Positions 3,354 to 47,140 are shown, counted from the stretch's first letter. The stretch is DNA of 64,000 nt from Acidimicrobiia bacterium (GCA_041577335.1 JBFGJH010000004.1:22549-86548), one strand, 5' to 3'. Notes: generated from the sequence alone by a model not told the origin. Numbers and translations are program-made.

Positions 3354-3502
3354 ATGCTCCCCTTTTCGAGTGGTCTTGAACCTACATGGCCATCCGCGCC
3401 GGCGGAGGGCATTGACCCGGTCCCAACCGCCCACTCAGCGCTGCAGGGACGGTCTGTTCAGGGCTATCGTTTGGTCAGATAGTCGCTGAGGGGAAGCTCA
3501 CC

Positions 3503-25515: not shown

Positions 25516-25640
25516 GCCCAAAAAGTGGTGGCGCACCGCGATATATCCAGCTGTTGCGGGGTTGGGCCGGCCTGCAAAGGGGACGAACCCGGCCCCATCT
25601 TGAACGATCTCTCTCTGAGAAAGGGGTAGCGTTGCGCTCC

Positions 25641-28985: not shown

Positions 28986-29978
28986 ATGGGAAGTCGGCGG
29001 ACCAACCTCGGCCTGATGGCTTTGTTGCCACTGGCGGCTGCCACGGGATTCATTGCCATGGGAGTCGGCACCCGCTGGGCGCTGCCGGCGGCATTCATTC
29101 ATGGCGCCACCGGCCTCGGCCTGGTGGTCCTGAGCCCTTGGAAGCAGGTGATCGTTCGGCGAGGTTGGCAGCGCGGGCCATCGGCGCGGTTGTCTTCGAC
29201 ATCCCTCACGATTCTGTCGATCGCGGCAGTGGCGAGCGGAGCAGCTCACGCAGCCGGTGCCTCGACCATCGGGCCCATGACCATCATGCAAGTCCACGTC
29301 ACATCCGGCCTCGGGGCTCTGGCCGCCGGGATAGTGCACTACCGCCGGCATGCGCTGCGCCCCCGAGCGACCGACTTCGGTCGGCGAAGCCTCCTCCTCG
29401 GGGCCAGTACAGCTGCCGCCGCCGGCCTGACATGGTTGGCCTGGGAAGGCGTGCTCGATGCAGCCGGCTGGCGTGGTTCAGAGCGGCGATTCACGGGATC
29501 CCACGAAGTGGCCTCGGGATCTCCCGATCTCATGCCGGTGACCGCATGGTTCAACGATCGTGTGCCAGAGGTCGATTCAAACACCTGGACCGTCACCATC
29601 GCCGGAAGAGCATGGTCCGTGGCGGAGTTGACTGCCTTGCCACAACACTCGGTGCGCGCGACGCTCGATTGCACGGGCGGGTGGTACTCGACTCAGGACT
29701 GGCTAGGCGTGCCGCTGAGCGGCCTTCTGCCCGAGGGCGATTGGCGCAGCGTGGTGGTCACGTCGAGCACCCGATACCGTCGCCGCCTCCCCCGCCGGGA
29801 CACGGAGGATGCGCTACTGGCGCTCGCGGTTGGAGACCAGCCCCTCACCGCAGGACACGGCGCGCCCGCCCGTTTGATCGTTCCGGGCCGCCGAGGATTC
29901 TGGTGGGTGAAATGGGTCACCACCGTCGAGGTTTCTTCACGACCGTGGTGGGCTCAATTGCCCTTCCCGGTCACCTGA
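28986..29978 (+). CDS. Membrane-anchored molybdopterin-dependent oxidoreductase (sulfite-oxidase / YedY-MsrP family)
   Basis: Four to five N-terminal TM helices, then ...TWTVTIAGRAWSVAELTALPQHSVRATLDCTGGWYSTQDWLGVPLSGLL (Mo-cofactor domain with a conserved Cys). Confidence 0.7.
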   Translation: MGSRRTNLGLMALLPLAAATGFIAMGVGTRWALPAAFIHGATGLGLVVLSPWKQVIVRRGWQRGPSARLSSTSLTILSIAAVASGAAHAAGASTIGPMTIMQVHVTSGLGALAAGIVHYRRHALRPRATDFGRRSLLLGASTAAAAGLTWLAWEGVLDAAGWRGSERRFTGSHEVASGSPDLMPVTAWFNDRVPEVDSNTWTVTIAGRAWSVAELTALPQHSVRATLDCTGGWYSTQDWLGVPLSGLLPEGDWRSVVVTSSTRYRRRLPRRDTEDALLALAVGDQPLTAGHGAPARLIVPGRRGFWWVKWVTTVEVSSRPWWAQLPFPVT

Positions 29979-30088: not shown

Positions 30089-30910
30089 TTGGTTAGCCTC
30101 TCACCGATGCAGGCGATCTTTGTAGGAGGCACCGGACGGTCGGGGACCACAGTCATCGGCCAGTTCCTCGGGCAGCATCCAACAGTGGTGGCAACCCTCC
30201 CGAAAGAGGTTCGATTCATCACCGACCCGGGCGGTCTCATCGAGCTCGTCGAAGAACCAGATCCAGCGAGTCTCGAACGGTTTCTGGCGTTGTTGCGTGG
30301 AAGATGGTGGAGCCGGGCCGGACCCGACGGTGGGGCGCGGGGCCTCCATCGCGGCATCGACATCGAAACCCTCGAGGCAGCTGCAACCCGGTTCGAGCAA
30401 GCCTTCAGTGGCGACCCTCGCGATGCCGCCGAGCAACTGATCCGGGACCTCATCGACCCCCTAGGGCGGGGAGGCAACGCCTGGGTAGAGACGACGCCTG
30501 ACAACGTCACCGCCGCATCGTCGCTGCGCAAGCTGATCCCATCGATGAAGCTGATCTGGATTCGTCGAGACGGCCGTGACACGGTTGCGTCGGTGCTCTC
30601 GCAACCGTGGGGACCCTCGACCGTTGCCGAGGCGATCCAATGGTGGAAGCAGCGGAATGACCTCGCCGAAGCCGAGACCGCCCAGGTGCCTGCCGAGCAG
30701 TTTCTGGCGCTCTCTTTGGAAGCGCTGGTCCGCGATCAGCGGGACGACACCTACCATCGATTACTGGCATTCGTAGGCGTCGAGGACCACCCGGCAGTCC
30801 GTCGGTTCTTTGACGAGGAGATGACGCCGAGTGCGGCGGGGATCGGGCGGTGGGAAGCGCTCGAGCGTCGCGACCGGGCAGCACTGGTGCACTTCTTCGG
30901 CCCAGACTGA
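30089..30910 (+). CDS. Sulfotransferase family protein (P-loop PAPS-binding)
   Basis: IFVGGTGRSGTTVIGQ (5'-PSB loop) and WIRRDGRDTVAS (3'-PB). TTG at 30089 or ATG at 30107. Confidence 0.65.
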   Translation: MVSLSPMQAIFVGGTGRSGTTVIGQFLGQHPTVVATLPKEVRFITDPGGLIELVEEPDPASLERFLALLRGRWWSRAGPDGGARGLHRGIDIETLEAAATRFEQAFSGDPRDAAEQLIRDLIDPLGRGGNAWVETTPDNVTAASSLRKLIPSMKLIWIRRDGRDTVASVLSQPWGPSTVAEAIQWWKQRNDLAEAETAQVPAEQFLALSLEALVRDQRDDTYHRLLAFVGVEDHPAVRRFFDEEMTPSAAGIGRWEALERRDRAALVHFFGPD

Positions 30911-33767: not shown

Positions 33768-34292
33768 GTGACCCTGAAGGCCGGCTACGACGTCACCGAG
33801 GACGACATCCGGGGGTGGATCCGATTCGCTTTGGCTCAACGGGGTGAGGTGCAACGGTCTGTGCGGATGGCCATGGTCCTACTCCCCATCATCGCGACAC
33901 TGCTCGGATGGCTCATCGAGGGCGCGCTCGGTGCCGCGGTGGGCCTGGCTCTCGGTCTCATCGTTGGACTGCTCGTCTTTCCGCAACTGATGAAGCGCAC
34001 GATCGACGGACGAATCGAAACGGCGATCGAGCAATTGCCCGATGGCATCGTGGGCCCGCACTCGTTGGAGGTGCTGGACGATCGGATCGTGTGGACGACG
34101 ACGGCAGTGCACAGCACATGGAAGAGGTCGGCGATCAGGCGCGTCGCCAAGACCGCCGACCACGCGTTCGTGATGCTGGGAGCAGAGAACGCCATCGTCG
34201 TGCCGCTCCGCAACGATGCGGCCGGTCAAGTCAGCGCCGTCGTGGGCGCCATCGAAGGGGCCCCACCACCGATTCTGCCGCGGCCCGGCTAG
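33768..34292 (+). CDS. Hypothetical membrane protein (YcxB-like)
   Basis: GTG at 33768. Two central TM helices: MAMVLLPIIATLLGWLIEGALGAAVGLALGLIVGLLVF. Confidence 0.45.
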   Translation: MTLKAGYDVTEDDIRGWIRFALAQRGEVQRSVRMAMVLLPIIATLLGWLIEGALGAAVGLALGLIVGLLVFPQLMKRTIDGRIETAIEQLPDGIVGPHSLEVLDDRIVWTTTAVHSTWKRSAIRRVAKTADHAFVMLGAENAIVVPLRNDAAGQVSAVVGAIEGAPPPILPRPG

Positions 34293-34681
34293 CGCCGGCG
34301 CCCTGGGCCTTCAGGTCGGCTTGCCCTCGCCACCTCCAATCGAAGCAGCCGCGCCGCGAGGTATCGCTGAGTGCCCCAAAAGGCGAATACGCCGACTGCG
34401 GCGATCCAAACGAAGCTGGGCAGCAGCCCCAACGTCACGAGCGCAACATTGAGCCCGATCGAGCCTGCAACACCCAGCATCAGGCGAGCTGTGAACGCCT
34501 TCGGCTGTTCGAGGTCGAGGATCACAAAGCCGGGCACCGTCAATACGAAGACGATCGAGAGAGACGGCTGGAGTGGCGGGCCGGCATCCGCCCACACACT
34601 GGCTGTTTGTCCGATGGCGACGATGACCACCCACATCTGACCGGCTCCCGGTCTCCATCCTCGGCCGATGAACTTCCTCAT
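34289..34681 (-). CDS. Small integral membrane protein (3-4 TM), translationally coupled to the upstream large membrane protein
   Basis: ATG 34681..34679 overlaps the TGA of the upstream gene (ATGA). Hydrophobic throughout. Confidence 0.5.
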   Translation of the reverse strand: MRKFIGRGWRPGAGQMWVVIVAIGQTASVWADAGPPLQPSLSIVFVLTVPGFVILDLEQPKAFTARLMLGVAGSIGLNVALVTLGLLPSFVWIAAVGVFAFWGTQRYLAARLLRLEVARASRPEGPGRRR

Positions 34682-36609
34682 TGCTGACCTGCCGGCGCAA
34701 AGACTCGGGCGTCACGGTCCTCAAACACGAGTTCGAACTCGTCCGATTCGAGCAACGACTGCTCGACGCGGTCCAAAGTCGGAGACAGCAGCGTCCCCAG
34801 GGCAGTGACCGATTCGCGCTGCGATCGAGTGATGATCACAAAACCACCGCTGTACCGTTCGGTATCGCTCATCCAACCGGCGATCCGAGTGGCAGGATCT
34901 TGGAGTAGGCCCTCGAGCGTCTCCGGCGTCGACCGGTCAAGCGGCAGATATTGGAAGAGCTCGTAGTTGCGGTGCTGGCGCGGGTAGTCGCGGCTGCCCT
35001 CGACGATGAGCGCTCCCGCCCGAGCGTTCTCGAAAAGGAACTCGGCCGCGGCCACCTCGGCGTCACTGAACACCTGCCGATTGTCGGCTCCAAAGCCGGC
35101 GATGAGCAGGGTCGCGGTCAAACCTACGAGCACAACGCCCATGGCGACGATGCCGAGGCGGGTTGACACGGTCTGGCTGCGCGGAAACCACAGCGACGCG
35201 GCGAGGAATGCTGCGAACGGCAGGGCAAACAAATAGGCGCGAAACAGAACCTCGCCGCCGTACGAGCTGAGTAGGACGAGTAGGACAGGAGCACCGGCCG
35301 CAACGACAACCCATTTGGTGGGAAGTCGATGGCGCCTTCGCCGCCACAACCCAAGGCCGGCGAAGGCCGCGATCAACGCGCTGAGCAGGCGGGACATCTG
35401 AGAGATTCGGAGCTGAGTCTCGTTGAAGAATTCGGCGGCGACGAGGTTGTTCTCCAGATTCGATTCGACGCCGCCTATCTCAGTGACCACGCCTCGGATA
35501 TTGTCGACCACAAAATCCCTGGCCGGCCCAAACATCCAAGCGAGGGAAAACACCACGATCGCCACGACCGGCCATGTCACTTTCATGACCCGGGCCAGTC
35601 GCAGCGCGGCAAGAACAACGATCGTGGCGATGGGCGTGATCTGATGAGTGCTTGCGATGGTCATCAGTGCAAGTGTCAGTACGACGCCAACGGCCAAGGA
35701 GGGCAGGGTTCCTGGCTCGATTGCATCGTCCAGGGGGTCACTCGATCCATGAATCCCGCTCGCGTCGGTGGCGTACCAGCGCAACACGATGGCGAGGACC
35801 ATGAGATACATGAAATAGGCAAGCGCCTGAGGTGCGAAATAGTCTTGACCCACCCAGTTGCCGAGCGTGAAGAAGAGAATGCCGGTCCACAGAAGCCTGG
35901 GGTCCGAGGTCACGCCGCGGAACAACACAAACAGCGCACCAACGAAGAGCAGCTCGAATAGCACCGGCGCCCACGAGGCATAGGAAAGCGCCGAGTCGAG
36001 ATTGCTTGCTTCGGTGATCCATGCGTTGATGCCAAAGAACCCCGGCCAGCTCTGATACACCGGATGAACCGGCACCGAAGGGTCGACACCACCCGTTCGC
36101 TGGATGAACTCCACAACTCCAACGTGCTTCCACGCCCACGAGAATCGCAGATGGTCGTAGACGAACGCCGGGACGCCGTGCACCATCACCGTGATCACAG
36201 TGACATAGGTGCCCAGAACGGGACCTCGTTCGGCTCGTCCCGCCGCGACGGCGTATCCAACCAACGCGCCCATCAGAGCTACGAACGCCGTGATGGGCAG
36301 GATGGTCACCAGCCCGTAACCTCCCATCGCGGACTCGTCGGTTTGCGCCAGAGACCATGCCCAGAGGAGGACCATGGCAGCGACGAACATGAAGTGACGG
36401 CGTGCCGAGGGTCCGCGAGAAGGATGGAGAAGAGCCTGGCGCAAGTCTTCGGGAGACTCTCCCTGAGTCGTTGGCTCGGCTTTCGTTACGCGATCGATGG
36501 CCACGGAGGCTTTCCGCGACAACTGGCGTACCGAACTCAGCGGTGCGACGGCCGTCGCTTGCTTGTTGCTATCGGATGAAAGGCGCGCCTGGCACGCAGA
36601 ACCCCCCAA
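34678..36609 (-). CDS. Large polytopic membrane protein, putative GT-C-fold glycosyltransferase / polysaccharide polymerase-like (start uncertain: TTG 36609 or ATG 36390)
   Basis: More than ten predicted TM helices. A large loop HVGVVEFIQRTGGVDPSVPVHPVYQSWPGFFGINAWITEASN is typical of lipid-linked-sugar GT-C enzymes. Last gene but one of the envelope operon. Confidence 0.55.
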   Translation of the reverse strand: MGGSACQARLSSDSNKQATAVAPLSSVRQLSRKASVAIDRVTKAEPTTQGESPEDLRQALLHPSRGPSARRHFMFVAAMVLLWAWSLAQTDESAMGGYGLVTILPITAFVALMGALVGYAVAAGRAERGPVLGTYVTVITVMVHGVPAFVYDHLRFSWAWKHVGVVEFIQRTGGVDPSVPVHPVYQSWPGFFGINAWITEASNLDSALSYASWAPVLFELLFVGALFVLFRGVTSDPRLLWTGILFFTLGNWVGQDYFAPQALAYFMYLMVLAIVLRWYATDASGIHGSSDPLDDAIEPGTLPSLAVGVVLTLALMTIASTHQITPIATIVVLAALRLARVMKVTWPVVAIVVFSLAWMFGPARDFVVDNIRGVVTEIGGVESNLENNLVAAEFFNETQLRISQMSRLLSALIAAFAGLGLWRRRRHRLPTKWVVVAAGAPVLLVLLSSYGGEVLFRAYLFALPFAAFLAASLWFPRSQTVSTRLGIVAMGVVLVGLTATLLIAGFGADNRQVFSDAEVAAAEFLFENARAGALIVEGSRDYPRQHRNYELFQYLPLDRSTPETLEGLLQDPATRIAGWMSDTERYSGGFVIITRSQRESVTALGTLLSPTLDRVEQSLLESDEFELVFEDRDARVFAPAGQQ

Positions 36610-36735
36610 TACTGATGTCTCTGACCGCGTATGCCGGCCAGAATGTCGTCAATGTAAACAGGCGCTGCCCCTGCGGACAACTGATCGGTCACCTCCGACG
36701 TTCGCCCCTCGACCGCTGGGATGCGAGCCGGGCCT

Positions 36736-39042
36736 TCACAGCCGGTGCAGCACCGCCTCGAAGTTACGAACGTACCAGGGCGAGCCCGGCCGATAGCGCT
36801 CAGAAACCTCGAGGTTCAAGGCAGCACTATGCCACCACAACGCGATGATGGCGGTGACACCAGCCGCCCATTGCAGGTCGTGGGCAGCTTCAAGCAGCTG
36901 CCGTTCCCGCTCGTCCCATCGCTCGTCGGCTTCGATGAGCTCGAGCACGACCTGCCCCGTTTCGCGACCTTCTAATGCCACCCTTGTCGTCACGAGAAGA
37001 GATACGAGGTCGAAGTCCACGGGTCCGGCGACGTCGGATGCATCCCAGTCGATGACACCGACCAAATGGCCGTCAGCTTCGTCGACGAGGAGATTTCCGA
37101 GCCAGAAGTCGCCGTGGATCATGGCGCTCGGAACGGGTGTCAGTTGCTGTCCGAGCCGGTCAGCCATCGCTCGAGCAGCGTCGATCGTGGCATCGGCTGC
37201 TCCTCCGGCTCGCAGCTGATCGAGGATGATGGCGGTCCTCCGATTCAGCCAATCGACTGGGCTGACGCCTGGATCGACGGTGCGACGGGTCAGCGTCGCC
37301 GCCCAGTCCGCTGCTTCGCCAATCGTGGTTTCGAGAACCCCGGGCTTGGCGAGGAGCCGGGTCGCCGGAAGCCCACCGAGATGGCGTTCCATCACGAAGA
37401 CTCGACCGTCCAGGTATCCATGTCCGAGTACGGGCGGGATCGTTGATCGAAGGGGGTCCAGCCGGCCATTCTCGCTCGCCCGTTCCAGAGCGGTCGTCGA
37501 ACGCTGGATAGACGTTTCTCCTTTGCCAGAGCGCCCCGTCTTGATGATCGCGCCGGGCCGACCGCCAGGATCACCCACGGTCACTGCCCGCACATCCGTG
37601 AGGCTCGACAGGCTCCGCAGCGGAACCCAGGAAGGGTGGCCAAGTGTGTCGGCGAGGCTGTCGAGCACGGCTCGCGCGTAGGCGCGATCCGATCGGTGGC
37701 CACGCAGCTGCATGGCTCGATCGCGCAGTGCACCGAGCGACTCGATGAAGCGAGGACTCAGGTTGGCCAGCAGCAGCGACCGCAAGCCCGTAACGAGAAG
37801 TACTGCCGCCACCACCGACTGGCCGACGAGCCAGGCAACACCAACGCCGGTGATCCCCATCGTGCCGAGGAGGAACCACGACAGGCCGAGCACTACCACC
37901 GCCAGGACCGACATGAGCACCACGAGCCGCTTCATGCGACGTTCGGCGCGGAGCAACGCCGTGTAGATGGTTGTCACCACCGTCGGAAGCGACGCAATGG
38001 CGAGTAGTCGAAGGAGTGACGCGCCCTCAGTCGAGTACTCCTGCCCGAACAGGCGCAAGACCAACGGCGCGGCGATCACCAACACGGCGACCGCCGGGAT
38101 CATGAGGAGCGTTGTCTGGCGCAGCGTCCGGTACGTGAGAACGGCGGCGGCGCTGGGATCGGCAGTCGTTTCGGTGAGCATTGACATACCGAAGTTGCGC
38201 CCTATGAGGTACAGGACGTACGCAACGCTCCACGCCAGGTAGAAATAGGCCGTCTCCGCCGCACTCGTTCGTTCCAGCACGATTACCGGAAGCAGGCTGA
38301 CAGTGCCAGTCCATACCAGGGAAGCTGCATAGTCACCGGCCACGAAGGCCCGCAGGATGCGGCCGGTCACATGCTCAGGATCGTCGCGCGTGGCACGTAC
38401 GTGTTTGGGAACGAGCCGTAGAAACATCAGCGCATTCACCACGACCACGACCGGCACCACCGGGACCGTCCACGCCACGAAGACACCCGAATCTGTCAGG
38501 GCATCAGCGACGAAAATCAGCACAGCTATCTTGGCGATCGCGAAGATGAGGTTCTCCACAGTTACCCAGTGAGCAGCCCGCAGGCCGGTGAGGGCGCCAT
38601 CCTGCAGCACGAAGATTGTCCAGGCCCCTACCGCAACCGGGAACCAGACGATCATCCCGGCGGACTCGCGTACGAAGCCAAGGGTTGGCGCCCAGATATC
38701 CACGCCGGCGACAAACAGTGCGCCCGCTGCCAAACCCGCTGATCCGGCAACCAGGTACGACCCAACGATGATCCGCGGCGTGGCATGACCGCCGCGCGGC
38801 ACGAAACGGTTCAGACCATTGAAGAGATTGAACGACGACAGATTGGCAAGGAACACCATCGTCGCGATCGCCGCGGATCCGACACCGATTTCGGCAGGCT
38901 CGAATAGCGCAGTCGCCAGAGTCCAAAATGCGAGGCCGAGCACCGACGACAGAACAGAGCTGGCTGCCAGAAAGTACCCGTTGCGATAGAGCGGATCGGA
39001 CCAGTGCCCCGCCAGCTTGGTCCGCCAGGTCACGCCGGCCAT
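36736..39042 (-). CDS. Fusion: MOP-superfamily polysaccharide flippase/exporter (Wzx-like, ~12-14 TM) plus C-terminal aminoglycoside-phosphotransferase-like (APH/ChoK) kinase domain
   Basis: The N-terminal ~430 aa are hydrophobic with Wzx-like topology. C-terminal MIHGDFWLGNLLVDEADGHLVGVIDWDASDVAGPVDFDL matches Brenner's motif HGDxxxxN plus the DWD activation loop. ATG at 39042 avoids overlap with the GH16 gene; the ORF extends to 39153. Confidence 0.75.
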   Translation of the reverse strand: MAGVTWRTKLAGHWSDPLYRNGYFLAASSVLSSVLGLAFWTLATALFEPAEIGVGSAAIATMVFLANLSSFNLFNGLNRFVPRGGHATPRIIVGSYLVAGSAGLAAGALFVAGVDIWAPTLGFVRESAGMIVWFPVAVGAWTIFVLQDGALTGLRAAHWVTVENLIFAIAKIAVLIFVADALTDSGVFVAWTVPVVPVVVVVNALMFLRLVPKHVRATRDDPEHVTGRILRAFVAGDYAASLVWTGTVSLLPVIVLERTSAAETAYFYLAWSVAYVLYLIGRNFGMSMLTETTADPSAAAVLTYRTLRQTTLLMIPAVAVLVIAAPLVLRLFGQEYSTEGASLLRLLAIASLPTVVTTIYTALLRAERRMKRLVVLMSVLAVVVLGLSWFLLGTMGITGVGVAWLVGQSVVAAVLLVTGLRSLLLANLSPRFIESLGALRDRAMQLRGHRSDRAYARAVLDSLADTLGHPSWVPLRSLSSLTDVRAVTVGDPGGRPGAIIKTGRSGKGETSIQRSTTALERASENGRLDPLRSTIPPVLGHGYLDGRVFVMERHLGGLPATRLLAKPGVLETTIGEAADWAATLTRRTVDPGVSPVDWLNRRTAIILDQLRAGGAADATIDAARAMADRLGQQLTPVPSAMIHGDFWLGNLLVDEADGHLVGVIDWDASDVAGPVDFDLVSLLVTTRVALEGRETGQVVLELIEADERWDERERQLLEAAHDLQWAAGVTAIIALWWHSAALNLEVSERYRPGSPWYVRNFEAVLHRL

Positions 39043-39058
39043 GGGTGGGGTCGGGCGG

Positions 39059-39955
39059 TCAGCCACTCGGCGTTGCTTCCTGCCACACCCTGATGTAATC
39101 GACCGCGAACTCGGCGGGGAAGTCGGTGCCATCGGTAGGCCCCGCATATTCACCGCCGACCGCCAGATTGGCGATCAGGTACATGGGCTCTGCGGGTAGG
39201 TGATCGGCCTCGTGAAAGCTCCACACTTGGCGACCATCGACGAACCAGATCACTGCGTCCTCAGACCATTCGACGGCGAAGGTGTGCCATCCGTCGGCGA
39301 AGTTAGGGCCCGGCCAGCGATTGCCCTCGCTGCGGCTCTCTCCGGTCTCGTTGCGCCAATGAATGTGCGATCGGAATAGATGGGGATCCTGGCCCAGGAA
39401 TTCGAGGATGTCGATCTCCGGCTTGGAGTCGTGAGTTATCGGTAGCAGCCAGAACGCCGGCCAGAGCCCGGCACCGGCCGGGATGCGTGCGCGCATCTCC
39501 ACGTAGCCGAATTGGAATGCATAGCCAGGATCAGGTTCCTTGTCGTTCGTCGGGCGACCACTGCTGACCATCCCGCTGACGTACGGGAAGACTGCGTCGT
39601 CGAACCCCACGACGGGGCCGTGATCAGCAGTCAGGTGGAGGACCCCTTCGCTGACGGTGACTTGTTCGGGGACGTACCATTGCTGCTCATTGGTGGACAG
39701 GTTCGTGCACCCGTTGTCATCCCACCAGAAACAGGTTGCCCACACTTCTCGGTCGAGAATCTCTCCATCGAATTCGTCGCTGAACCGTAGGTCCCAGCGC
39801 AGCGCGTCTTGGCCCAAAGGCACAACGGGCTTCTCGCCACGGCGCAGCTCAAACGTCGGCCAGCCGAAGTTCTTCTCTGGGTATCTCAGTGGGAGCAACG
39901 CCAGCCCGAGCAGGAACAAGGCGGTGAGGGTGACCGCCACCGCCAACCTATGCAT
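39059..39955 (-). CDS. Secreted glycoside hydrolase family 16 (beta-glucanase/laminarinase-like)
   Basis: Signal peptide MHRLAVAVTLTALFLLGLALLP. GH16 catalytic motif EIDILEF (ExDxxE) and GLWPAFWLL. ATG at 39955. Confidence 0.8.
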   Translation of the reverse strand: MHRLAVAVTLTALFLLGLALLPLRYPEKNFGWPTFELRRGEKPVVPLGQDALRWDLRFSDEFDGEILDREVWATCFWWDDNGCTNLSTNEQQWYVPEQVTVSEGVLHLTADHGPVVGFDDAVFPYVSGMVSSGRPTNDKEPDPGYAFQFGYVEMRARIPAGAGLWPAFWLLPITHDSKPEIDILEFLGQDPHLFRSHIHWRNETGESRSEGNRWPGPNFADGWHTFAVEWSEDAVIWFVDGRQVWSFHEADHLPAEPMYLIANLAVGGEYAGPTDGTDFPAEFAVDYIRVWQEATPSG

Positions 39956-40970
39956 CACGGAACCCAATGAGCTTCTTCACGGCGGTCCGGGCAGCCGTGT
40001 CGACGCGCGTCACCGGCAGTCGCTCGAGTCGGTACTCGGCGTAGGGAATCGAGTGGGCGCCGAGGCGCTCTTTGAATTCGGCCAATCCTCGAGACGACCC
40101 GCTCTCTCCCATGTGGTAGGCAGCACACCCGGCGCGACAGGCGTCCTCGATCGCCCGTACCTGCAGCAGATACGATGCCTCCGTGCGACCCGACAACTCC
40201 TCGTCGACGACGCCCCGCGTGTAGTGGGCGTTGGCGCCCTGGGTCACGATGATGGCTGCCGCAGGTCGACCGTCGACCGACGCTATCCACAGTCGAAACG
40301 CTTCACCGAGTGCCTCGGCCATCCTCTGGAACTTGGCGAGCGGATCCCGCCTCCGTCCTCGCCACAGGGCCATGGCTCTGGGCTCGTTCTGCCGCCGTGC
40401 CCACCGCTCCAGAGACTGCTGGAACAGGGCGTAGAACACTTCGAGACCCTCGCCGTTCGTCGATCGACTCACCTCGACGCCGAGCCGGTCTGCTCGGTTG
40501 GCTCGCTTGCGAGCTCCTCGACTCATTCGATCGTTCCAGACCTCCTCGAACCCACCTCGGAGATCGATGACATGTGCACGGCGCTCGATCTCGAGTGCGA
40601 GATCGGCGGCTGCCTTCCAGGCGTCGGCATTCAGCGGGTTGGGACGCACCGAGAAGGCCAGGTTCCCGGCGCGCGAAACATCGCGAAGGACCGATTGCAC
40701 CAGCCCTCGGGTGAGGGGCTCGGAGCTGATCAGACCCCCCATGCCCCACGCCGGTGGCATCGACCACACACGGGTCATCGGACCCCTCGCCACCCCGACG
40801 GCCGGCAGAACAGCCGTTGTTCCAGAGGGAAATACATAAGCCCGGCTGGCATCGAAATACCGTCCCATCGCCGTGATGGCATCCACCCAGGCAGGGCTTT
40901 GGGACTCCAGATGGGCACGGTCGGCCGCCAGCACTTCTTGCCAGATTCCTCGCGGAGCGGGCGTGATCAC
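39948..40970 (-). CDS. FemAB-like / GNAT-fold acyltransferase (Acetyltransf_6 family; peptidyl or glycan N-acyl/aminoacyl transferase)
   Basis: The proposed start is GTG at 40970..40968, forming GTGA with the deacetylase stop. The C-terminal region AIIVTQGANAHYTRGVVDEE...YLLQVRAIEDACRAGCAAYHMGESGSSRGLAEFKERLGA is a typical FemAB/BioF2-like GNAT core. Confidence 0.6.
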   Translation of the reverse strand: MITPAPRGIWQEVLAADRAHLESQSPAWVDAITAMGRYFDASRAYVFPSGTTAVLPAVGVARGPMTRVWSMPPAWGMGGLISSEPLTRGLVQSVLRDVSRAGNLAFSVRPNPLNADAWKAAADLALEIERRAHVIDLRGGFEEVWNDRMSRGARKRANRADRLGVEVSRSTNGEGLEVFYALFQQSLERWARRQNEPRAMALWRGRRRDPLAKFQRMAEALGEAFRLWIASVDGRPAAAIIVTQGANAHYTRGVVDEELSGRTEASYLLQVRAIEDACRAGCAAYHMGESGSSRGLAEFKERLGAHSIPYAEYRLERLPVTRVDTAARTAVKKLIGFRDA

Positions 40971-41791
40971 CTCCACGATGAGCCTCCAGCCAGGCTCGCC
41001 GACATCTTCCGGTGCGCCGGCCTCTGGAGCGAACGCCCGAGTCGCCAGAGGTTCTCCTGGGCTCGACGGCCCCATTTGGGTCGCAGACCTCGGCCGCCGA
41101 TGGTGGCGATGAGGTCCTCGGCGCTGTAGTCGCCCTCCACGATCACACGCGGGATCTCGAGGCCCTCCGATAGGCCATCGCTCAGCGAATGATGGACCGA
41201 CACCGCCGATTCGAAGCCCGCTTCAACAACCGCACTGCGCACGGACCGATTGGAATAGCCATGGGGATAGGCGAAGCTGCGCACTGCTTGGCCGCTCGCC
41301 TCGCGGAGAACCGTACGTGGTGCCTGCACCTCGGATCCCAGTTGGCCCGGACGGAGCAAGTCGAGCATGGCGTGGCTGTGGCTGTGCGCACCGACTTCCA
41401 CGCCGCGATCGGCAAGCTGGGAGAGGTCATTCAGATCCAACATCGGAATTGTCCCTGCAGCACTGGACGCAAGCCAGCGGCTGGTTGAGCCGAGGTAGCC
41501 GGTAGTTATGTACAGCGTGACCGGGAATCCGCGCTTCTCGAGGGCTGGGAGGGCGTTGGCACCGAAGTCGGCAAAGCCGTCGTCGACCGTGATGATCACA
41601 GCCCGTGGTGGGAGCTTCCCGTGGGAGCGAACTCGATCGACAGCATCCGAGATCGTCAGGCCCTGGTAGCCCGCCGATACCAGCGCATCCAGGTGTGAGG
41701 CAAACACAGCCGGTGCAACGGTCCAACGCCGAAAACTCTCCGGCCCGCTGGACGCAACGCTGTGATACATCAGAACCGGCACGGCAACCAT
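40967..41791 (-). CDS. Polysaccharide deacetylase (CE4 / NodB family)
   Basis: PVLMYHSV and VIITVDDGFADF (NodB TFDDG-like). ATG at 41791. Confidence 0.8.
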   Translation of the reverse strand: MVAVPVLMYHSVASSGPESFRRWTVAPAVFASHLDALVSAGYQGLTISDAVDRVRSHGKLPPRAVIITVDDGFADFGANALPALEKRGFPVTLYITTGYLGSTSRWLASSAAGTIPMLDLNDLSQLADRGVEVGAHSHSHAMLDLLRPGQLGSEVQAPRTVLREASGQAVRSFAYPHGYSNRSVRSAVVEAGFESAVSVHHSLSDGLSEGLEIPRVIVEGDYSAEDLIATIGGRGLRPKWGRRAQENLWRLGRSLQRPAHRKMSASLAGGSSWR

Positions 41792-41802
41792 TCCCACAAC
41801 GG

Positions 41803-43041
41803 TCAACTCTCGGAGTCGCGATGGAGTGCTCGGCGTCCGCGAAGATAGGCGACCGGCCCAGCAACGAGACCGGCTAGCCGCGGTCCCATCGGCACGCCCA
41901 CGCGCGATTCCATGCCCGCCCCGTTGATCTGCGCCAGATGGCGAAGACCCGCCGGGATGCCCATGATCATCCTTGGCAGCAGCTCCGGGTGATCCACGGC
42001 GCATCGAGTCAGATAGGCACCAAGGCCGGTGCCGTATTGTCGTACCTGTCGCCGGAACCGATCCTTGTCCGGATCGTGATGGTGCCGCACCAATGCTGCC
42101 GGCTCATAGATCAGCGCGTGCCCTGCCAAGATCACGTCGAAGAACGCAGCCAGGTCGTCCCCACCCCGACCAGGACTTCCAGTCCCGAGGGCCCCATCGA
42201 AGCCACCGACGGCCCGCAGCGCTTGGGTTCGGAACGCCATATTGGCTCCTGATCCACATGCCCCGACCGCGTAGGGAAACAAGCCCGACTTCGGCCGGTT
42301 CTCAGCCAGGTCAAAGACCCGGCGCTCAAAGGCCTTGCCCAACCCGAGATGTTCGACGAGATACTGTGCTTCATGGTCGAGGCTGGCGGGATATATGAGG
42401 CCAGTGACGCACGCTGCATTGGGAAACTCAGCGAATGTTCGGGCTATGGCAGATAGCCAACCGACGTCCGGCACCACGTCGTCGTCGGTGAAGGCGACGA
42501 TGGGCGCTTCAACATATGGCAGCGCAGCATTGTGAGCGTTGGCCAGTCCCGGCGTGGTCTCGTGAACATATCGAACGGAACGACCCTTCACCGACGCCGA
42601 CTCCACCGTGCTGCGAGCAGATGGAGAGGCTGGATCGTTGTCGACAACGATCACCTCGAAATCACTGTGATCCTGGCGATCGAGCGCTGCCAGGCACGCC
42701 CCGAGTTGCTCGAGCCGGTCTCTCGTGGCGATGACCACTACGGCCGGCATCGGATCACCCTCGATTGCGGGGGCGGCCGATCTTGGCCCACCAGGTACTC
42801 GGTTTCGCACCTGGTCCACTGCGTCCTCTACCTGATCCCCGCTCAGCCCTTCCGGGGGCAGGTCCAGCGCAACCTGACCGAGCGGGCCCCGATCGTCGAA
42901 CACCAGTATCTGGACCCTCCCATACTGGCGACCGTCCGGGGTGCTGGCGGGTGTCACGGGCACTGCCGGCTTCGAGATGGCTCGATCCACGAGCAACACG
43001 GGGCGGTATTCGCCGCTGTCGTTCTCCTGCTTGCTGCTCAT
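41803..43041 (-). CDS. Glycosyltransferase family 2
   Basis: VVVIATRDRLEQLGACLAALDRQDHSDFEVIVVDNDP and FTDDDVVPD (DxD). ATG at 43041 after a GGAG-containing leader. First gene of the envelope polysaccharide operon. Confidence 0.8.
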   Translation of the reverse strand: MSSKQENDSGEYRPVLLVDRAISKPAVPVTPASTPDGRQYGRVQILVFDDRGPLGQVALDLPPEGLSGDQVEDAVDQVRNRVPGGPRSAAPAIEGDPMPAVVVIATRDRLEQLGACLAALDRQDHSDFEVIVVDNDPASPSARSTVESASVKGRSVRYVHETTPGLANAHNAALPYVEAPIVAFTDDDVVPDVGWLSAIARTFAEFPNAACVTGLIYPASLDHEAQYLVEHLGLGKAFERRVFDLAENRPKSGLFPYAVGACGSGANMAFRTQALRAVGGFDGALGTGSPGRGGDDLAAFFDVILAGHALIYEPAALVRHHHDPDKDRFRRQVRQYGTGLGAYLTRCAVDHPELLPRMIMGIPAGLRHLAQINGAGMESRVGVPMGPRLAGLVAGPVAYLRGRRALHRDSES

Positions 43042-43251
43042 GCGATGGCGAATCCAGATTGCTGTGAACGGGCAATCCGAAAACCATGTTGGATTGACCG
43101 CGTGACGATGCGCCCCCGAGCATCCATTATCCCACCCTGTCTCCCTGTCAGATGGCAGCAGATTGGCTACCGATGCGCCTCCACTGCACATCTTCGTCGC
43201 CCAGTCGGGCGATCGTCAACTGCTCGACGGCGGGAAGATTCGGCGCGGGAC

Positions 43252-43689
43252 CTACTCGCCGATGTCCTCGCTCCACAATTCAGGGTGGGTCGCCATGAAG
43301 TCGACCATCAAATCGACGCAGTCGATCCGATCTAAGACCTCGAGGTGGACGCCGCGTTCCGCGAGGTAGGCCTCGGGGCCTCGGAATGAGCGGTTCTCGC
43401 CCACGAAGACGGTAGGAATCCCGTAGAGGAGAATCGCGCCCGAGCACATGTCGCATGGGGAGAGAGTCGTGTAGAGCTGCGACCTGCGGTAGGCCTCACC
43501 CGACAGCCGTCCGGCGTTTTGCAGTGCGTCCATCTCGGCGTGAAGGATGACGCTTCCTTGCTGAACTCGCCGGTTGTGGCCGCGACCGATCAGTTCGCCG
43601 TCGAGCACGAGAACCGAGCCTATGGGGATGCCGCCCTCGGACAGCCCAAGTCGAGCTTCCTCGACAGCCACGTCCATCGGATCGAACAT
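43252..43689 (-). CDS. Nucleoside deaminase (cytidine/deoxycytidylate deaminase family; TadA/guanine-deaminase-like)
   Basis: Zinc-binding HAEMDALQNAG (H-A-E) and SPCDMCSGA (PCxxC). Confidence 0.8.
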   Translation of the reverse strand: MFDPMDVAVEEARLGLSEGGIPIGSVLVLDGELIGRGHNRRVQQGSVILHAEMDALQNAGRLSGEAYRRSQLYTTLSPCDMCSGAILLYGIPTVFVGENRSFRGPEAYLAERGVHLEVLDRIDCVDLMVDFMATHPELWSEDIGE

Positions 43690-43832: not shown

Positions 43833-45401
43833 CTAGCCCGCCAAAAGCATGTCGGCACCTTTTTCGGCGATCATGATCGTGGGAGCGTTGGTGTTCCCCC
43901 GGACAACGGATCTCATCACCGAGGCATCTGCTACTCGGAGGCCCTCGGTGCCGAACACGCGGAGCTGCGGATCAACCACAGCATCATCGGGGCCGGCACC
44001 CATTCGAGCTGTGCATGACGGGTGGTAGAGCAACTCGGCGCGATCCCGCAAGAACTGGACGACTTCTTCTTCGCTTTCGGCCGTCGATGCACCGGGGATC
44101 TGCTCTTTCCCCCAGTAGGTCGCCAATGCATCTTGGCTGACGATCTCTCTGGCCATGCGGAAGCCGGCAACGAGAGACGCCACGTCGTCCGGGTGTTCGA
44201 GCGCTCTCGTTTCGATGTCGGGATGGGTCGTCGGGTCGGCATTGCGAAGCTTGATCGACCCGCGGCTCTTCGGCGCGACCAAGGTAGGCCCAAACGACAT
44301 CCCATCTCCTTCGATCGTCTCGAAGCCGTGCCGGATGAAGACGCCAGGAGCAAAATGAAACTGGATGTCGGGTGCGGCAAGATCGTCTCGTGTCTTCACG
44401 AACAGCCCGGCCTCGCCGACATTCGACGAGAGCATCCCCTTCTTCCTCGACAGATACTCGACCAGCTTGGCCGGCTCCTCGGCGTGGGCAAGCGAAACTG
44501 GTTGTGTCACAGAATGGATCTGCAGGATGACGGGGTGATCCTGCAGATGGCGGCCCACATTGGCGTTGTCGACTCGAACGTCGATGCCTTTCTGGCGCAG
44601 GTGCTCGCCATCACCGACGCCCGACAGCATCAGCAGCTGCGGCGTGTTCACAGCCCCACCCGCCAAGACGACCTCGGATGCGAGCGCCTTTTCGATGTTG
44701 CGTCCAATGGAGTACTCCACGCCGATGGCAGTGGTCCCGTCGAACAACACTCGGTGGACGAGGGCATCCGTGAGCACGGTCAAATTCTCCCGTCCCATCG
44801 CCGGTTGGAGGAACGCCTTCCACGTCGACCATCGTGCGGCCTTCTTCTGCGTGACCTGATACAGGCCGGCCCCTTCCTGATTCGCGCCGTTGAAGTCGGG
44901 GTTGCGACGGATGCCCGCTTGCACGGCAGCCTCAACGAAAGCCAGAGAAAGCTCGTTGGGGCTGGTCAGATCGGCGACGTTGAGCGGTCCGTCTGCGCCG
45001 TGATAGTCGTCGCTACCGCGCTCGTTGGCTTCGGACTTTTTGAAATATGGAAGCACATCGTCGTACGCCCAGCCGGAGGCTCCCTCGGCCGCCCACCCGT
45101 CGTAGTCGGCTCGGTGGCCCCTGATGTAGATCATGGCGTTCATGGACGATGAACCACCCAACATCTTCCCTCGGGGGATATAGAGCTGACGATTGCTACA
45201 GCATCCCTCCGGCATGGTGAAGTAGTTCCAATCCCGTTTGGTTTGGAACAACTTCGAAAACGCCACCGGCGTGTCGACATTGAGATGCTTGGCCGATCCA
45301 CCGGCCTCGAGGACGAGGACTTTTACGGACGGGTCGAGGCTGAGACGGTTGGCGAGAACGGATCCTGCGGATCCCGCCCCCACGATGATGAAGTCGTACA
45401 T
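43833..45401 (-). CDS. GMC family oxidoreductase (choline-dehydrogenase-like flavoprotein)
   Basis: MYDFIIVGAGSAGSVLANRLSLDPSVKVLVLEAGG is the N-terminal FAD-binding signature. ATG at 45401. Confidence 0.85.
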   Translation of the reverse strand: MYDFIIVGAGSAGSVLANRLSLDPSVKVLVLEAGGSAKHLNVDTPVAFSKLFQTKRDWNYFTMPEGCCSNRQLYIPRGKMLGGSSSMNAMIYIRGHRADYDGWAAEGASGWAYDDVLPYFKKSEANERGSDDYHGADGPLNVADLTSPNELSLAFVEAAVQAGIRRNPDFNGANQEGAGLYQVTQKKAARWSTWKAFLQPAMGRENLTVLTDALVHRVLFDGTTAIGVEYSIGRNIEKALASEVVLAGGAVNTPQLLMLSGVGDGEHLRQKGIDVRVDNANVGRHLQDHPVILQIHSVTQPVSLAHAEEPAKLVEYLSRKKGMLSSNVGEAGLFVKTRDDLAAPDIQFHFAPGVFIRHGFETIEGDGMSFGPTLVAPKSRGSIKLRNADPTTHPDIETRALEHPDDVASLVAGFRMAREIVSQDALATYWGKEQIPGASTAESEEEVVQFLRDRAELLYHPSCTARMGAGPDDAVVDPQLRVFGTEGLRVADASVMRSVVRGNTNAPTIMIAEKGADMLLAG

Positions 45402-45457
45402 ACGACGAGCATACGTCGCTGTAGTGGGCCCAGGTCGGCCTCTGACCCAAGTCGTTG

Positions 45458-47017
45458 TCAGGCTTCGACGACGACCGAGATCGTATGCCAGCCAGTCGCC
45501 CCATCGGGCCGGGGTGGCGCCAGTGCGTCTGTCTGGGTTTCTCCAGTGCCGTCGGTGGCCCGGACGGCAACGAGGTGACGGCCCTCGGTTGCCTGCCACG
45601 CAAGGCTCCATTGCCGCCATGAGTCGTCCGAAATGGACTCGGCGAGATCGGCTTCCATCCACGGGCCGTCATCGATGGATACTTCGACTTTGCTGATCCC
45701 GCGATTGGGAGCCCAAGCCACTCCGGCAATCGTTTCCATACCGGCTTGAATCCGCCGGTTGTGCAAAGGCCGGTCGATCCGCGACTGGGTCTTGATCGGG
45801 CCTTGCTTGGACCAACCGCGCGGCACCCAATACGCATCGAAGGCGTCCCAGGTGGTCAACTCGATTTCCGAGAGCCATTTTGTCGCCGATACGTAGCCAT
45901 ACAGCCCGGCGACGACCAGTCGCGCCGGGTATCCGTGGTCGACCGGGAGCGGCTCGCCGTTCATGCCCACTGCTATGAGCGCTTCCCGCCCATCAAATGC
46001 CACCTCGGTGGGGAAGCCAACCGTGAAATCATCGACGGAGCGCCCAACGATCTGGGTGGCACCTTCCTGGACCCGGGCCAGGTCGAGCACGTGGCTGAGA
46101 GGAACTCCCGTCCACTTTGCATTGCCGACCAATCCGCCACCGACCCGGTTCGACACGCAGGAGAGGGTCACATAGCGCTCGACCATGGGCAGCTCGAGCA
46201 GCTGGTCGTACGTCATCTCGAAGGGACGATCCACCATTCCGGAAATCTTGAGGGACCAGTTGTCGGGGTTGACGAGCGGCGAGGTCACCGCAGTGTCGAT
46301 CTTGTAGAACTCATCGTTGGGTGTGATCAGGTCCACTGCTCCGACCACTTGGGCGCCTGGGGGCGCAGCCGTTACCCGCTCAGCGGCGTCCACGACGGGC
46401 AGAACGGAAGCATCCCTCCGCACGGCGGTTGCCATGCGAGCGATCGCCCACCGTCCTGTGATCGCTGACGCCAATGCCAGCGCCGTCACTGCCCCGGCGG
46501 ACCGGAGGAACGTGCGACGAGCGGCGTCGGGCTCTCGATCCTTGGTCCCGGTGAGAAAGAACAAGGCCATCGACAGAAGGCCGACAACCACGGCTACCAA
46601 CGAAGCAACCGCAGCAGAGCTGAGGTCGGCGAGTGGATCCTGTGATGCAGCCACAAACGCGACGGCACCGAAGGCGATGAAAGCCGCCACGGCGACAAGG
46701 AAAGTCTTGCGGGTGGCCAATCCCACGATCGCACCGATGAGCAGCGCCACCGCAACGATCGAAACGATCAACGCCACCTTGTCGTAGGTGCCGAACAAGT
46801 CGATGGCCCACTTCGCCATCGAGGATGGGACGGTATCGATGACCCACGCTCCGAGAGCGCCGATCAGCGATTGGTCGCCACCGGAAAGGCCGGTCGCCAG
46901 TTCGGAGACGCCGAGTGCCACGGCAACCGACACGATCCCGAACAGTGCTGCCAGCCACCCACTGATACGACGGGGTGCCGATTCCTCAGTGCCTGTGATC
47001 ACGACATCCTCTTCCAT
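45458..47017 (-). CDS. Membrane-anchored molybdopterin-dependent oxidoreductase (sulfite-oxidase family with dimerisation domain)
   Basis: N-terminal TM helices, then YVTLSCVSNRVGGGLVGNAKWTGVPLSHVL (Mo-domain Cys motif) and a C-terminal Ig-like dimerisation region. ATG at 47017. Confidence 0.75.
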   Translation of the reverse strand: MEEDVVITGTEESAPRRISGWLAALFGIVSVAVALGVSELATGLSGGDQSLIGALGAWVIDTVPSSMAKWAIDLFGTYDKVALIVSIVAVALLIGAIVGLATRKTFLVAVAAFIAFGAVAFVAASQDPLADLSSAAVASLVAVVVGLLSMALFFLTGTKDREPDAARRTFLRSAGAVTALALASAITGRWAIARMATAVRRDASVLPVVDAAERVTAAPPGAQVVGAVDLITPNDEFYKIDTAVTSPLVNPDNWSLKISGMVDRPFEMTYDQLLELPMVERYVTLSCVSNRVGGGLVGNAKWTGVPLSHVLDLARVQEGATQIVGRSVDDFTVGFPTEVAFDGREALIAVGMNGEPLPVDHGYPARLVVAGLYGYVSATKWLSEIELTTWDAFDAYWVPRGWSKQGPIKTQSRIDRPLHNRRIQAGMETIAGVAWAPNRGISKVEVSIDDGPWMEADLAESISDDSWRQWSLAWQATEGRHLVAVRATDGTGETQTDALAPPRPDGATGWHTISVVVEA

Positions 47018-47140
47018 ATGCACAAGATTCGGAGACACTCCCTCGGAAATCAAGTTCAACGCAAGGAGTTTCGGAACTGTTCATGTATCTGGAACGCGTT
47101 CCGCAGGGGCTTGTGAGGGTCTCGAATTGGGTTACACGGT

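Follow-up and report, generated by a model that had tools for sequence, protein, structure and literature searches.

Why would a bacterium tie a kinase covalently to a putative glycan flippase? The question is raised by a gene cluster in a stretch of 64,000 nucleotides (nt) from an Acidimicrobiia bacterium (GCA_041577335.1 JBFGJH010000004.1:22549-86548), referred to here as the window and numbered from its first letter. Seven consecutive genes on the minus strand (34289-43041) encode, in 5' to 3' order, a GT2 glycosyltransferase, a CE4 polysaccharide deacetylase, a FemAB-type transferase, a GH16 glycoside hydrolase/transglycosylase, a Wzx-type flippase fused to an APH-family phosphotransferase (Wzx-APH), a GT-C-fold membrane glycosyltransferase and a small membrane protein (Table 1). 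A preliminary description of this DNA had proposed a cell-envelope glycan operon, a reading that holds as far as the architecture goes. The operon represents a widespread and uncharacterised variant of lipid-linked glycan modification, the chemistry of which we infer. The explanation that we prefer, at a probability of about 0.55, is that a sugar unit linked to a polyprenyl lipid is built and tailored by the operon's products inside the cell, flipped and attached to the envelope, the substrates and the acceptor being putative. Three elements are new: an APH kinase that has kept its catalytic residues and is fused to a Wzx-type flippase, an unnamed GT-C family and the small partner of the latter.

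The flippase-kinase fusion

The fusion gene (36736-39042, minus strand) is an uninterrupted open reading frame (ORF) of 768 amino acids (aa), and the NCBI gene calls contain an identical 768-aa product (P0001). An AlphaFold2 model built with 85 homologues (predicted local distance difference test, pLDDT, 94.3; predicted template modelling score, pTM, 0.86) shows 12 long helices, a linker helix and then a bilobal alpha/beta domain. When the N-terminal half was compared with the PDB by Foldseek, the lipid III flippase WzxE came first (9g9n, TM-score 0.81; 9g9p, 0.76; both on the target), with MATE transporters and MurJ, a protein of 14 helices, coming next. Pfam gave no relevant match to this half at E <= 10, PF01943 included, and only a chance-level match to Tweety (E 1.2) was seen. 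Precomputed PF01943 matches are found in a minority of fusion homologues, and many homologues are labelled by JGI with the O-antigen/teichoic acid export COG. The earlier label 'Wzx-like' is therefore backed by the structure model and by the homologues that bear PF01943, but not by Pfam on this protein itself. By its predicted fold the N-terminal half is a Wzx-type MOP flippase, for which translocation of a glycan is the predicted function. A basic N-terminus and 12 helices should, by the positive-inside rule, leave the C-terminus and the kinase in the cytoplasm, and the triple fusions described below agree with a cytoplasmic kinase, as GT-C enzymes start in the cytoplasm.

The Pfam APH match to the C-terminal half spans residues 522-751. 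Both kinase motifs pointed out in the preliminary description were found: HGDFWLGN spans aa 643-650 (nt 37093-37116), and aa 662-667 (nt 37042-37059) read GVIDWD, which includes the metal-binding D665. The beta-3 lysine is K501. Among the 85 homologues, H643, N650 and D665 are retained in all 85 and D645 in 84. The domain has no hydrophobic segment. Its Foldseek matches in the PDB are APH(2'')-IVa/Id and APH(3')-II, and a profile of the family found the APH domain of ACAD11, APH(3')-VIII, macrolide 2'-phosphotransferase and capreomycin phosphotransferase at E 2e-10 to 7e-7, as against only E 0.0085 for the choline kinase LicA (4r77). Pfam Choline_kinase was not matched at E <= 0.01, and NCBIfam gave a weak match of the fusion to the RdoA/SrkA-type Ser/Thr kinase family (E 0.0015). 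Aminoglycoside and macrolide kinases, the closest relatives with solved structures, usually act on hydroxyls of amino sugars, which counts in favour of a kinase acting on an amino sugar. With the catalytic residues kept, phosphorylation coupled to export, as first proposed, may be regarded as a reasonable reading of the sequence.

The fusion is genuine and conserved in orthologues, as had been claimed. The 120 best database matches comprise 97 Wzx-APH proteins, 13 flippases only and 10 triple fusions, Wzx-APH-GT-C, of 1315-1407 aa. In an exhaustive profile search of 1.84 billion cluster representatives, 4183 reached E <= 1e-30, and of the best 150 almost every one is a full-length fusion. An artefact of assembly or gene calling was rejected, since more than 100 independent full-length homologues exist. 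The fusion was at first called unusual; it is uncharacterised, but it belongs to a large family.

Other combinations of the same modules are also found. The GT-C family is elsewhere fused to the flippase alone, to the APH domain alone or to a second GT2 paralogue; flippase and GT-C enzyme occur in one polypeptide in at least 15 protein clusters, and a GT2-CE4 fusion exists within the GT2 family (P0324). Taken together, the Wzx-APH, Wzx-APH-GT-C, Wzx-GT-C, APH-GT-C, GT2-GT-C and GT2-CE4 fusions mean that every module is tied to another somewhere. In five of the 97 Wzx-APH fusions, an insert of about 500 aa lies between the two domains. In such long variants (P0090, P0091, P0097, P0101 and P0109, of about 1230-1250 aa, and L021 9983-13619) the insert matches NTP_transf_5 and thymidylate-kinase-like P-loop domains below threshold; the APH part of L021 is encoded by an ORF of its own, which overlaps.

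A kinase encoded separately in orthologues had been named beforehand as evidence against a functional fusion. This arrangement occurs in a minority of loci, such as L047 (Streptacidiphilus) and L057 (Kitasatospora), where the kinase is a separate 372-aa gene. In both cases the gene is kept inside the same cluster, which argues for functional coupling. The first of these loci (L047 9872-18945, Streptacidiphilus sp. MAP5-3) encodes a 455-aa unfused flippase, a 1039-aa protein with a weak HAD-like match, the 372-aa APH kinase, the GT-C enzyme and two tandem GH16 proteins.

The GT-C enzyme and its small partner

The GT-C protein consists of a polytopic N-terminal part and a C-terminal alpha/beta domain, and carries the invariant motifs WAWKH (nt 36124-36138), WVGQDYFAPQ (nt 35827-35856) and GGEVLFR (nt 35239-35259). 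Its structure model (pLDDT 92.5, pTM 0.92) clearly has the GT-C fold, so that the initial description as 'GT-C-like' was right at the level of predicted fold. The top structural matches are GT-C transferases (OST, PMT, ArnT and Aft), with oligosaccharyltransferases leading, and are not Wzy-like. No Pfam or NCBIfam match was found even at E <= 10, nor any PDB sequence match with a 90-sequence profile, and relatives are annotated as 'hypothetical protein' by PGAP. As judged from its sequence, the protein is outside all named GT-C families (STT3, PMT, ArnT/PMT_2, Emb/Aft and others). Seven acidic positions are conserved in at least 85% of sequences (E132, D201, D221, E418, D474, E483 and E515); read from the alignment rather than from the model, none of them falls in the short loop after helix 1.

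The 130-aa protein encoded next to it has a conserved [C/V]PG motif, here VPG at nt 34529-34537. In nine other loci an ORF of 104-149 aa overlaps the GT-C stop codon by 4 nt, and seven of the nine (L003, L011, L013, L018, L034, L048 and L053) encode predicted membrane proteins with three to four hydrophobic segments and the same PG motif. The arrangement is likewise seen in L026, L028, L086 and the Pseudonocardia plasmid L083. This recurrence indicates that the 130-aa protein is a genuine component. It has no match to DUF2304, the family of GacJ.

The GT2, CE4, FemAB-type and GH16 proteins

Pfam domains were called at curated cut-offs, with a screen for weak matches down to E <= 10 for the flippase half, the GT-C protein and the small protein. 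At these cut-offs the GT2, CE4, FemAB-like, GH16 and APH assignments made in the preliminary description all hold. None of the seven proteins matched an NCBIfam equivalog at its cut-off, and a set of core peptidoglycan or arabinogalactan genes of known function was rejected for this reason.

The GT2 enzyme, also present as a 412-aa product in the NCBI gene calls, has a DDD motif at aa 186-188 (nt 42478-42486) and no hydrophobic or transmembrane segment, as for a cytoplasmic or peripheral protein. Its best NCBIfam matches, all far under cut-off, are MftF-like (107 bits against 280), EpsD, HpsE, AglG, PglI and GlfT1; no ArnC- or GtrB-type model was matched, and the nearest PDB sequences are soluble GT-A enzymes. 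The CE4 start is ambiguous on comparison with L001, the closest relative (41782 or 41806). Its motifs TVDDG (nt 41576-41590) and HSHSH (nt 41372-41386) are intact, and the Asp-His-His metal motif is complete. The protein has neither a signal peptide nor a hydrophobic segment, which points to a cytoplasmic deacetylase like NodB or ArnD, unlike the secreted PgaB/IcaB. It weakly matches TIGR03006 and NodB in NCBIfam, under the cut-offs, and at E <= 0.01 neither an ArnC nor an ArnD match was listed for the CE4 and GT2 proteins.

The FemAB-type protein, which is cytoplasmic in that it has no hydrophobic segment, gives a second Pfam match to FemAB (PF02388, 26.8 bits, cut-off 24, 2.9e-6). A search of PDB sequences with the single protein gave no match; a profile of orthologues was needed, which matched an aminoacyl-tRNA-dependent peptide synthase (9wqy, E 1.6e-8) and FemX (E 5e-6). 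The PEP-CTERM-associated FemAB family TIGR03019 is matched, under the family cut-off, by 18 of 21 orthologues. By its sequence the protein is a member of the FemAB/FemX family, with aminoacyl-tRNA or acyl-CoA as candidate donor. The GH16 protein (298 aa in the NCBI gene calls as well) is extracytoplasmic, with a single N-terminal hydrophobic anchor, and its catalytic ExDxxE motif reads EIDILE at aa 180-185 (nt 39401-39418). It also matches SKN1_KRE6_Sbg1 in Pfam (1.3e-16) and, below cut-off, the EglC-like (2.4e-41) and ExoK (1.4e-7) models of NCBIfam.

Conservation and modularity of the cassette

Proteins of the window were compared by tblastn with 81 loci that encode relatives of the flippase. 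The order GT2, CE4, FemAB-type, GH16, Wzx-APH and GT-C is found in Anaerolineae (L003, L012), Acidimicrobiia (L023, L048, L053) and an uncultured actinomycete (L034), and L007 has the same order through the fusion with no GT-C match. In L004, L019, an alphaproteobacterial metagenome-assembled genome (L024) and Ensifer (L038), the order of the core is kept except that one or two genes have been displaced or inverted. The fusion is also found on megaplasmids of Ensifer, Shinella and Sinorhizobium. The cassette thus recurs across Chloroflexota, Actinomycetota and Rhizobiaceae, and the flippase and GT-C genes are adjacent here and in most loci. In PLSDB, the Ensifer and Pseudonocardia loci are annotated with no features or as 'hypothetical protein'.

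A reduced form of the cassette, with the CE4 gene, an unfused flippase and the GT-C gene, is present in Streptomyces, Kitasatospora-like and some Chloroflexota loci. Reduced loci often have a distantly related GT2; the kinase-less core of Streptomyces has no orthologue of the GT2 described here, and its related GT2 is only 23-29% identical. Co-variation was counted in those loci that extend 7 kb or more to either side. Among 18 kinase-fused loci, orthologues are present for GT2 in 17, for CE4, FemAB-type and GT-C in 16 each and for GH16 in 14. Among 34 kinase-less loci, CE4 is present in 30 and GT-C in 31, while orthologues of GT2, FemAB-type and GH16 are present in none. The association of the kinase with the FemAB-type gene is strong by Fisher's test (p = 1.5e-11), a value that is indicative only, as the loci are not phylogenetically independent. 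The kinase, the FemAB-type protein, GH16 and the GT2 subtype appear to form an accessory tailoring module gained or lost together. CE4, flippase, GT-C and small protein would be the older core, with the tailoring module added on top of it.

The closest relative, L001, has a fusion that is 78% identical and keeps everything except the FemAB-type gene. Where that gene lies here (39948-40970), the CE4 and GH16 genes of L001 overlap directly (L001 8244-10008). As distant loci have the FemAB-type gene in this place, its absence from L001 looks like a clean loss of a single gene. In L084, the FemAB-type and fusion genes abut, and no GT2, CE4 or GT-C gene was called within 10 kb; a WhiB gene adjoins the fusion homologue there.

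The number of glycosyltransferases also varies, with three GT2 genes in some loci (L085, L086) against one in this operon. In L085 8901-22358, a Logan contig with the Chloroflexota protein P0026, two FemAB-type, two GT-C and three consecutive GT2 genes are found, which suggests paralogous pathways or a longer glycan unit.

Proposed pathway and alternative explanations

The compartments in which the proteins are placed set the frame of the preferred pathway: the GT2, CE4 and FemAB-type enzymes and the APH domain are without membrane or signal segments and so work in the cytoplasm, and the GT-C enzyme, the small protein and the anchored GH16 enzyme act on the outside. The GT2 enzyme would add a sugar containing an N-acetyl-hexosamine to a lipid-linked acceptor, and the CE4 enzyme would remove the N-acetyl group and expose a free amine, following the logic of NodB and ArnD. 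The amine would be re-acylated by the FemAB-type enzyme with an amino acid from aminoacyl-tRNA. Using ATP, the APH domain could then phosphorylate a hydroxyl of the amino sugar or of its new substituent, at a site predicted to lie beside the entrance of the flippase, after which the Wzx domain would flip the finished unit. Outside, the GT-C enzyme and its small partner may move the unit from the lipid carrier to an acceptor in the envelope, and the GH16 enzyme may trim or transglycosylate the product. The carrier could hold a monosaccharide through a monophosphate, as in the Arn, Gtr and Gac systems, or, as with oligosaccharyltransferases, an oligosaccharide through a diphosphate.

A more specific proposal can be put forward only tentatively, and we would sooner bet against it than for it. 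Wzx-APH, in some lineages together with GT-C, would be a coupled machine that tailors, phosphorylates, flips and transfers, in which ATP-dependent phosphorylation of the de-N-acetylated, aminoacylated lipid-linked sugar licenses its export. Chloroflexota, Rhizobiaceae and many Actinomycetota would share its product, an unrecognised phosphorylated envelope glycan bearing amino acids that a new GT-C family and a new small membrane subunit would install.

Several points weigh against the preferred pathway. Every chemical step in it is deduced from family membership. The GT2 enzyme is no closer to the polyprenyl-phosphate sugar synthases (ArnC, GtrB, GacI) than other GT2s are, and Pfam and NCBIfam identified no initiating phosphoglycosyltransferase among the seven operon products. 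Position K501 is lysine in 66 and arginine in 15 of the 85 homologues, and in the 85-sequence alignment the expected helix shows no conserved alpha-C glutamate, so that full catalytic competence of the kinase is not certain. In addition, L001 keeps the kinase without the FemAB-type gene, which means that the kinase is not strictly dependent on an aminoacyl substituent.

Part of this evidence can be read in other ways, and the first alternative concerns the polytopic protein. It could be the polymerase of a Wzx/Wzy exopolysaccharide pathway of the classical type, in which GH16 would control chain length as a glycanase, like the rhizobial ExoK/EglC, both of which it resembles. WzxE, the top structural match of the flippase, is a repeat-unit flippase; the three GT2 genes of L085 and L086 would be enough for an oligosaccharide repeat, and polymer extension is known for some GT-C enzymes (Emb, AftD). 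However, the polytopic protein is closest in structure to GT-C transferases rather than to Wzy, the seven products include no initiating enzyme, co-polymerase or outer-membrane export protein, and there is a single GT2 here and no orthologous one in the kinase-less core of Streptomyces. Such a pathway is partly compatible with these data, but we consider it unlikely. A second alternative, which strikes us as a little more doubtful, makes the APH domain a regulatory or gating module that switches the flippase on through ATP binding, autophosphorylation or protein phosphorylation. Mycobacterial MviN, a MOP flippase with a regulatory kinase-like domain, is a precedent (PMC6180346), and the substitution of the beta-3 lysine, the missing alpha-C glutamate and the weak RdoA/SrkA-type match would suit it. 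Unlike a pseudokinase, the domain retains its His/Asp/Asn residues and the Asp that binds metal in 84-85 of 85 homologues, and both fold and profile indicate an APH small-molecule kinase rather than a Hanks kinase. The kinase also co-varies with FemAB, GH16 and the GT2 subtype and not with the flippase, kinase-less flippases sharing the same core.

The preliminary description had suggested, as one option, transfer of phosphocholine or phosphoethanolamine, and a LicA-like kinase could indeed activate a small head-group (choline, ethanolamine, an amino alcohol or an amino acid) for phospho-transfer onto the glycan. LicA-type choline kinases belong to the same Pfam family, and the NTP_transf_5-like and P-loop kinase-like inserts of P0090, P0109 and L021, below threshold as they are, would suit a route by kinase and nucleotidyltransferase. 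Yet the LicA match (E 0.0085) compares with 1e-10 to 1e-6 for the ACAD11 APH domain and the antibiotic kinases, the Choline_kinase family was not matched, and neither a LicC-like cytidylyltransferase nor a LicD-type transferase was found among the operon products with Pfam and NCBIfam. Nor is there an obvious rationale for tying a kinase of soluble metabolites to a flippase, and sometimes to a GT-C enzyme too. The head-group route therefore seems improbable, although the long variants keep it in play, and the proposal of phosphocholine or phosphoethanolamine transfer finds little support. The same description had speculatively linked the operon to a secondary cell-wall polymer that anchors surface-layer homology (SLH) domain proteins of the window. 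Two such proteins are encoded in the window and one is kept nearby in L001, but among the 81 cassette loci SLH-like sequence lies within 10 kb only in the syntenic L001, and the cassette is common in Rhizobiaceae, Streptomyces-like actinomycetes and Chloroflexota. A pyruvyltransferase (CsaB) was not found among the window genes scanned, which are a part of all its ORFs. An anchoring polymer is accordingly very improbable, and the proposed link is not supported.

Operon layout and surroundings

Gene starts were set by homology and by the NCBI gene calls of the identical sequence (Table 1). Nine genes had been counted between 34289 and 43041; the same-strand operon is real, but the interval holds seven. 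Nine is reached only by adding a same-strand deaminase (43252-43689) and a GMC oxidoreductase (43833-45662), which lie outside the interval beyond a 210-nt gap, are syntenic in the closest relative L001 only and do not accompany the cassette in other taxa. At its 3' end the operon is bounded by a convergent plus-strand gene (33768-34292).

Table 1. Features of the operon and its non-coding regions in the window.
Feature	Position	Strand	Evidence or remark
Upstream non-coding region, 210 nt	43042-43251	-	Between deaminase end (43252) and GT2 start (43041)
GT2 glycosyltransferase, 412 aa	41803-43041	-	Pfam Glycos_transf_2, 63.5 bits, 3e-17
CE4 polysaccharide deacetylase, about 271-279 aa	40967-41806	-	Pfam Polysacc_deac_1, 74.5 bits (cut-off 23.1), 9.5e-21
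FemAB-type (Acetyltransf_6) transferase, about 340 aa	39948-40970	-	PF13480, 49.1 bits (cut-off 22), 8.3e-13
GH16 glycoside hydrolase/transglycosylase, 298 aa	39059-39955	-	Pfam Glyco_hydro_16, 87.1 bits (cut-off 22), 1.2e-24
Fusion, N-terminal domain (aa 1-463), predicted 12-helix MOP/Wzx-type flippase and long linker helix	37654-39042	-	AlphaFold2 and Foldseek
Fusion, C-terminal domain (aa 464-768), APH-family phosphotransferase	36736-37653	-	Pfam APH, 54.3 bits (cut-off 23.2), 2.2e-14
Intergenic gap between fusion and GT-C genes, 231 nt	36505-36735	-	Islands conserved in the 78%-identity relative L001
GT-C-fold membrane glycosyltransferase, 608 aa, family unnamed	34678-36504	-	Start GTG 36504 by homology
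Small polytopic membrane protein, 130 aa	34289-34681	-	Start overlaps GT-C stop (ATGA); no Pfam match

The couplings noted at first are both present, GTGA at 40967-40970 (CE4 stop and FemAB-type start) and ATGA at 34678-34681 (GT-C stop and small protein start). The GT2/CE4 junction ranges from a 4-nt overlap to a 20-nt gap with the choice of CE4 start, the FemAB-type and GH16 genes overlap by 8 nt, and 16 nt separate GH16 from the fusion gene. Tight spacing, claimed for the whole operon, is a property of most junctions but not of that between the fusion and GT-C genes. The islands in this non-coding gap that are conserved in L001 include GCCTGTTTACA(T)TGAC and TGGGGGGTTCTnCGTG, and a gap of roughly 50-250 nt is retained at the same junction in most other loci. 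The gap may contain an internal promoter, a 5' leader or a leader element; a search of it with Rfam gave no match. The region upstream of GT2 is the presumed operon promoter region, in which a scan for sigma-70-like consensus found no site. Scans with promoter and terminator consensus sequences, and Rfam, gave nothing informative. A plus-strand ORF (39657-41129, 490 aa) was rejected as a gene: it is antisense to the homology-confirmed FemAB-type and GH16 genes, has high third-position G+C and is itself an artefact of high G+C content.

Elsewhere in the window, three SLH-like proteins had been reported. Only two of them could be confirmed (25554-27161 and 59899-60897, both plus strand). The two are 48% identical over 272 residues, and their SLH-like repeats take the form FTDDD..S.FE.DI..AAA.IT.GCNPP..FCP.D.VTRGQMAAFL. 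A Sulfotransfer_3 family gene (30089-30910, plus strand) lies about 3.4 kb past the 3' end of the operon, and genes with molybdopterin-oxidoreductase domains flank the region (28986-29978, plus strand; 45458-47059, minus strand). The positions of these three genes are conserved in L001, and no link of any of them with the cassette was seen in other loci. The window also encodes a Septum_form protein, which together with the WhiB gene of L084 points to Actinomycetota, and, at 198-3434 on the minus strand, a 1078-aa protein with DUF7362, DUF7379 and DUF7363 and a C-terminal CHAT protease domain.

Significance

Envelope biogenesis poses two open questions here: what lets a Wzx flippase recognise a finished substrate, and how tailoring in the cytoplasm and export are coordinated. 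A kinase tethered to a flippase, and sometimes to a GT-C enzyme, is a natural system in which to study the channelling of substrates and their licensing by modification. Two protein families that neither Pfam nor NCBIfam covers, those of the GT-C enzyme and of its small partner, are defined by the cassette as well; it also points to envelope glycan modification in groups with poorly understood envelopes (Chloroflexota, Acidimicrobiia and Thermoleophilia). Culturable and genetically tractable carriers exist, among them Sinorhizobium fredii CCBAU 83666, Ensifer adhaerens CTYH.Ch1, Shinella, Nocardia sp. NPDC058480 and Streptacidiphilus pinicola, so that the predictions are directly testable.

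Comparison with known systems

Within the literature searched, no description of a flippase-APH fusion or of the cassette was found. To our knowledge, MviN is the only studied MOP flippase for lipid-linked glycans with a fused kinase-like domain. Gee and colleagues reportedly described it in 2012 as a MurJ-type lipid II flippase whose kinase-like domain is a catalytically dead Hanks-type pseudokinase with a regulatory role. In this mycobacterial protein (MurJ), a flippase of the MOP superfamily is joined to a cytoplasmic kinase-like domain (PMC6180346). The fusion described here differs in both halves, with 12 predicted Wzx-like helices instead of the 14 of MurJ and with an APH-type domain in which the catalytic residues are intact.

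Parts of the cytoplasmic chemistry proposed here have counterparts in other gene clusters. The adjacent nodC, nodB and nodA genes of rhizobia share the logic of glycosylation, de-N-acetylation and re-acylation, although NodA is an unrelated fatty-acyl transferase. Exopolysaccharide loci of the XrtA/PEP-CTERM type share the pair of deacetylase (TIGR03006) and FemAB protein (TIGR03019), with matches under the cut-offs, and that pair is itself uncharacterised. Neither the Nod nor the PEP-CTERM system has a flippase-kinase or a GT-C enzyme. The Arn pathway is also close in its overall design, as it likewise consists of a GT2 (ArnC), a deacetylase-family enzyme (ArnD), a flippase (ArnE/F) and a GT-C enzyme (ArnT) (PMC12690121, PMC8495848). 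Its flippase, however, is the small ArnE/F pair and not a Wzx-type protein, and the FemAB, kinase and GH16 steps have no counterpart in it.

In Streptococcus pyogenes, GacI, GacJ, GacK and GacL are a GT2, a small membrane protein, a Wzx-family flippase (GacK) and a GT-C enzyme (bioRxiv 10.1101/180810; PMC8035078). Together with other multi-component transmembrane glycosylation systems (GtrABC; CsbB/GtcA/YfhO; mycobacterial PpgS/Rv3632/Rv3779), they share the cast and the compartments proposed for the operon described here, with a GT-C enzyme using a flipped lipid-linked sugar on the outside. Systems of the Gac and Gtr type have no kinase, CE4, FemAB-type or GH16 protein, and the GT2 described here has no specific similarity to synthases of the GacI/GtrB type. 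In addition, the small protein is coupled to the GT-C gene and not, like GacJ, to the GT2 gene. Judged by analogy of function, the multi-component transmembrane glycosylation systems nevertheless appear to be the best counterparts of the operon, and GacI/GacJ/GacK/GacL the closest among them.

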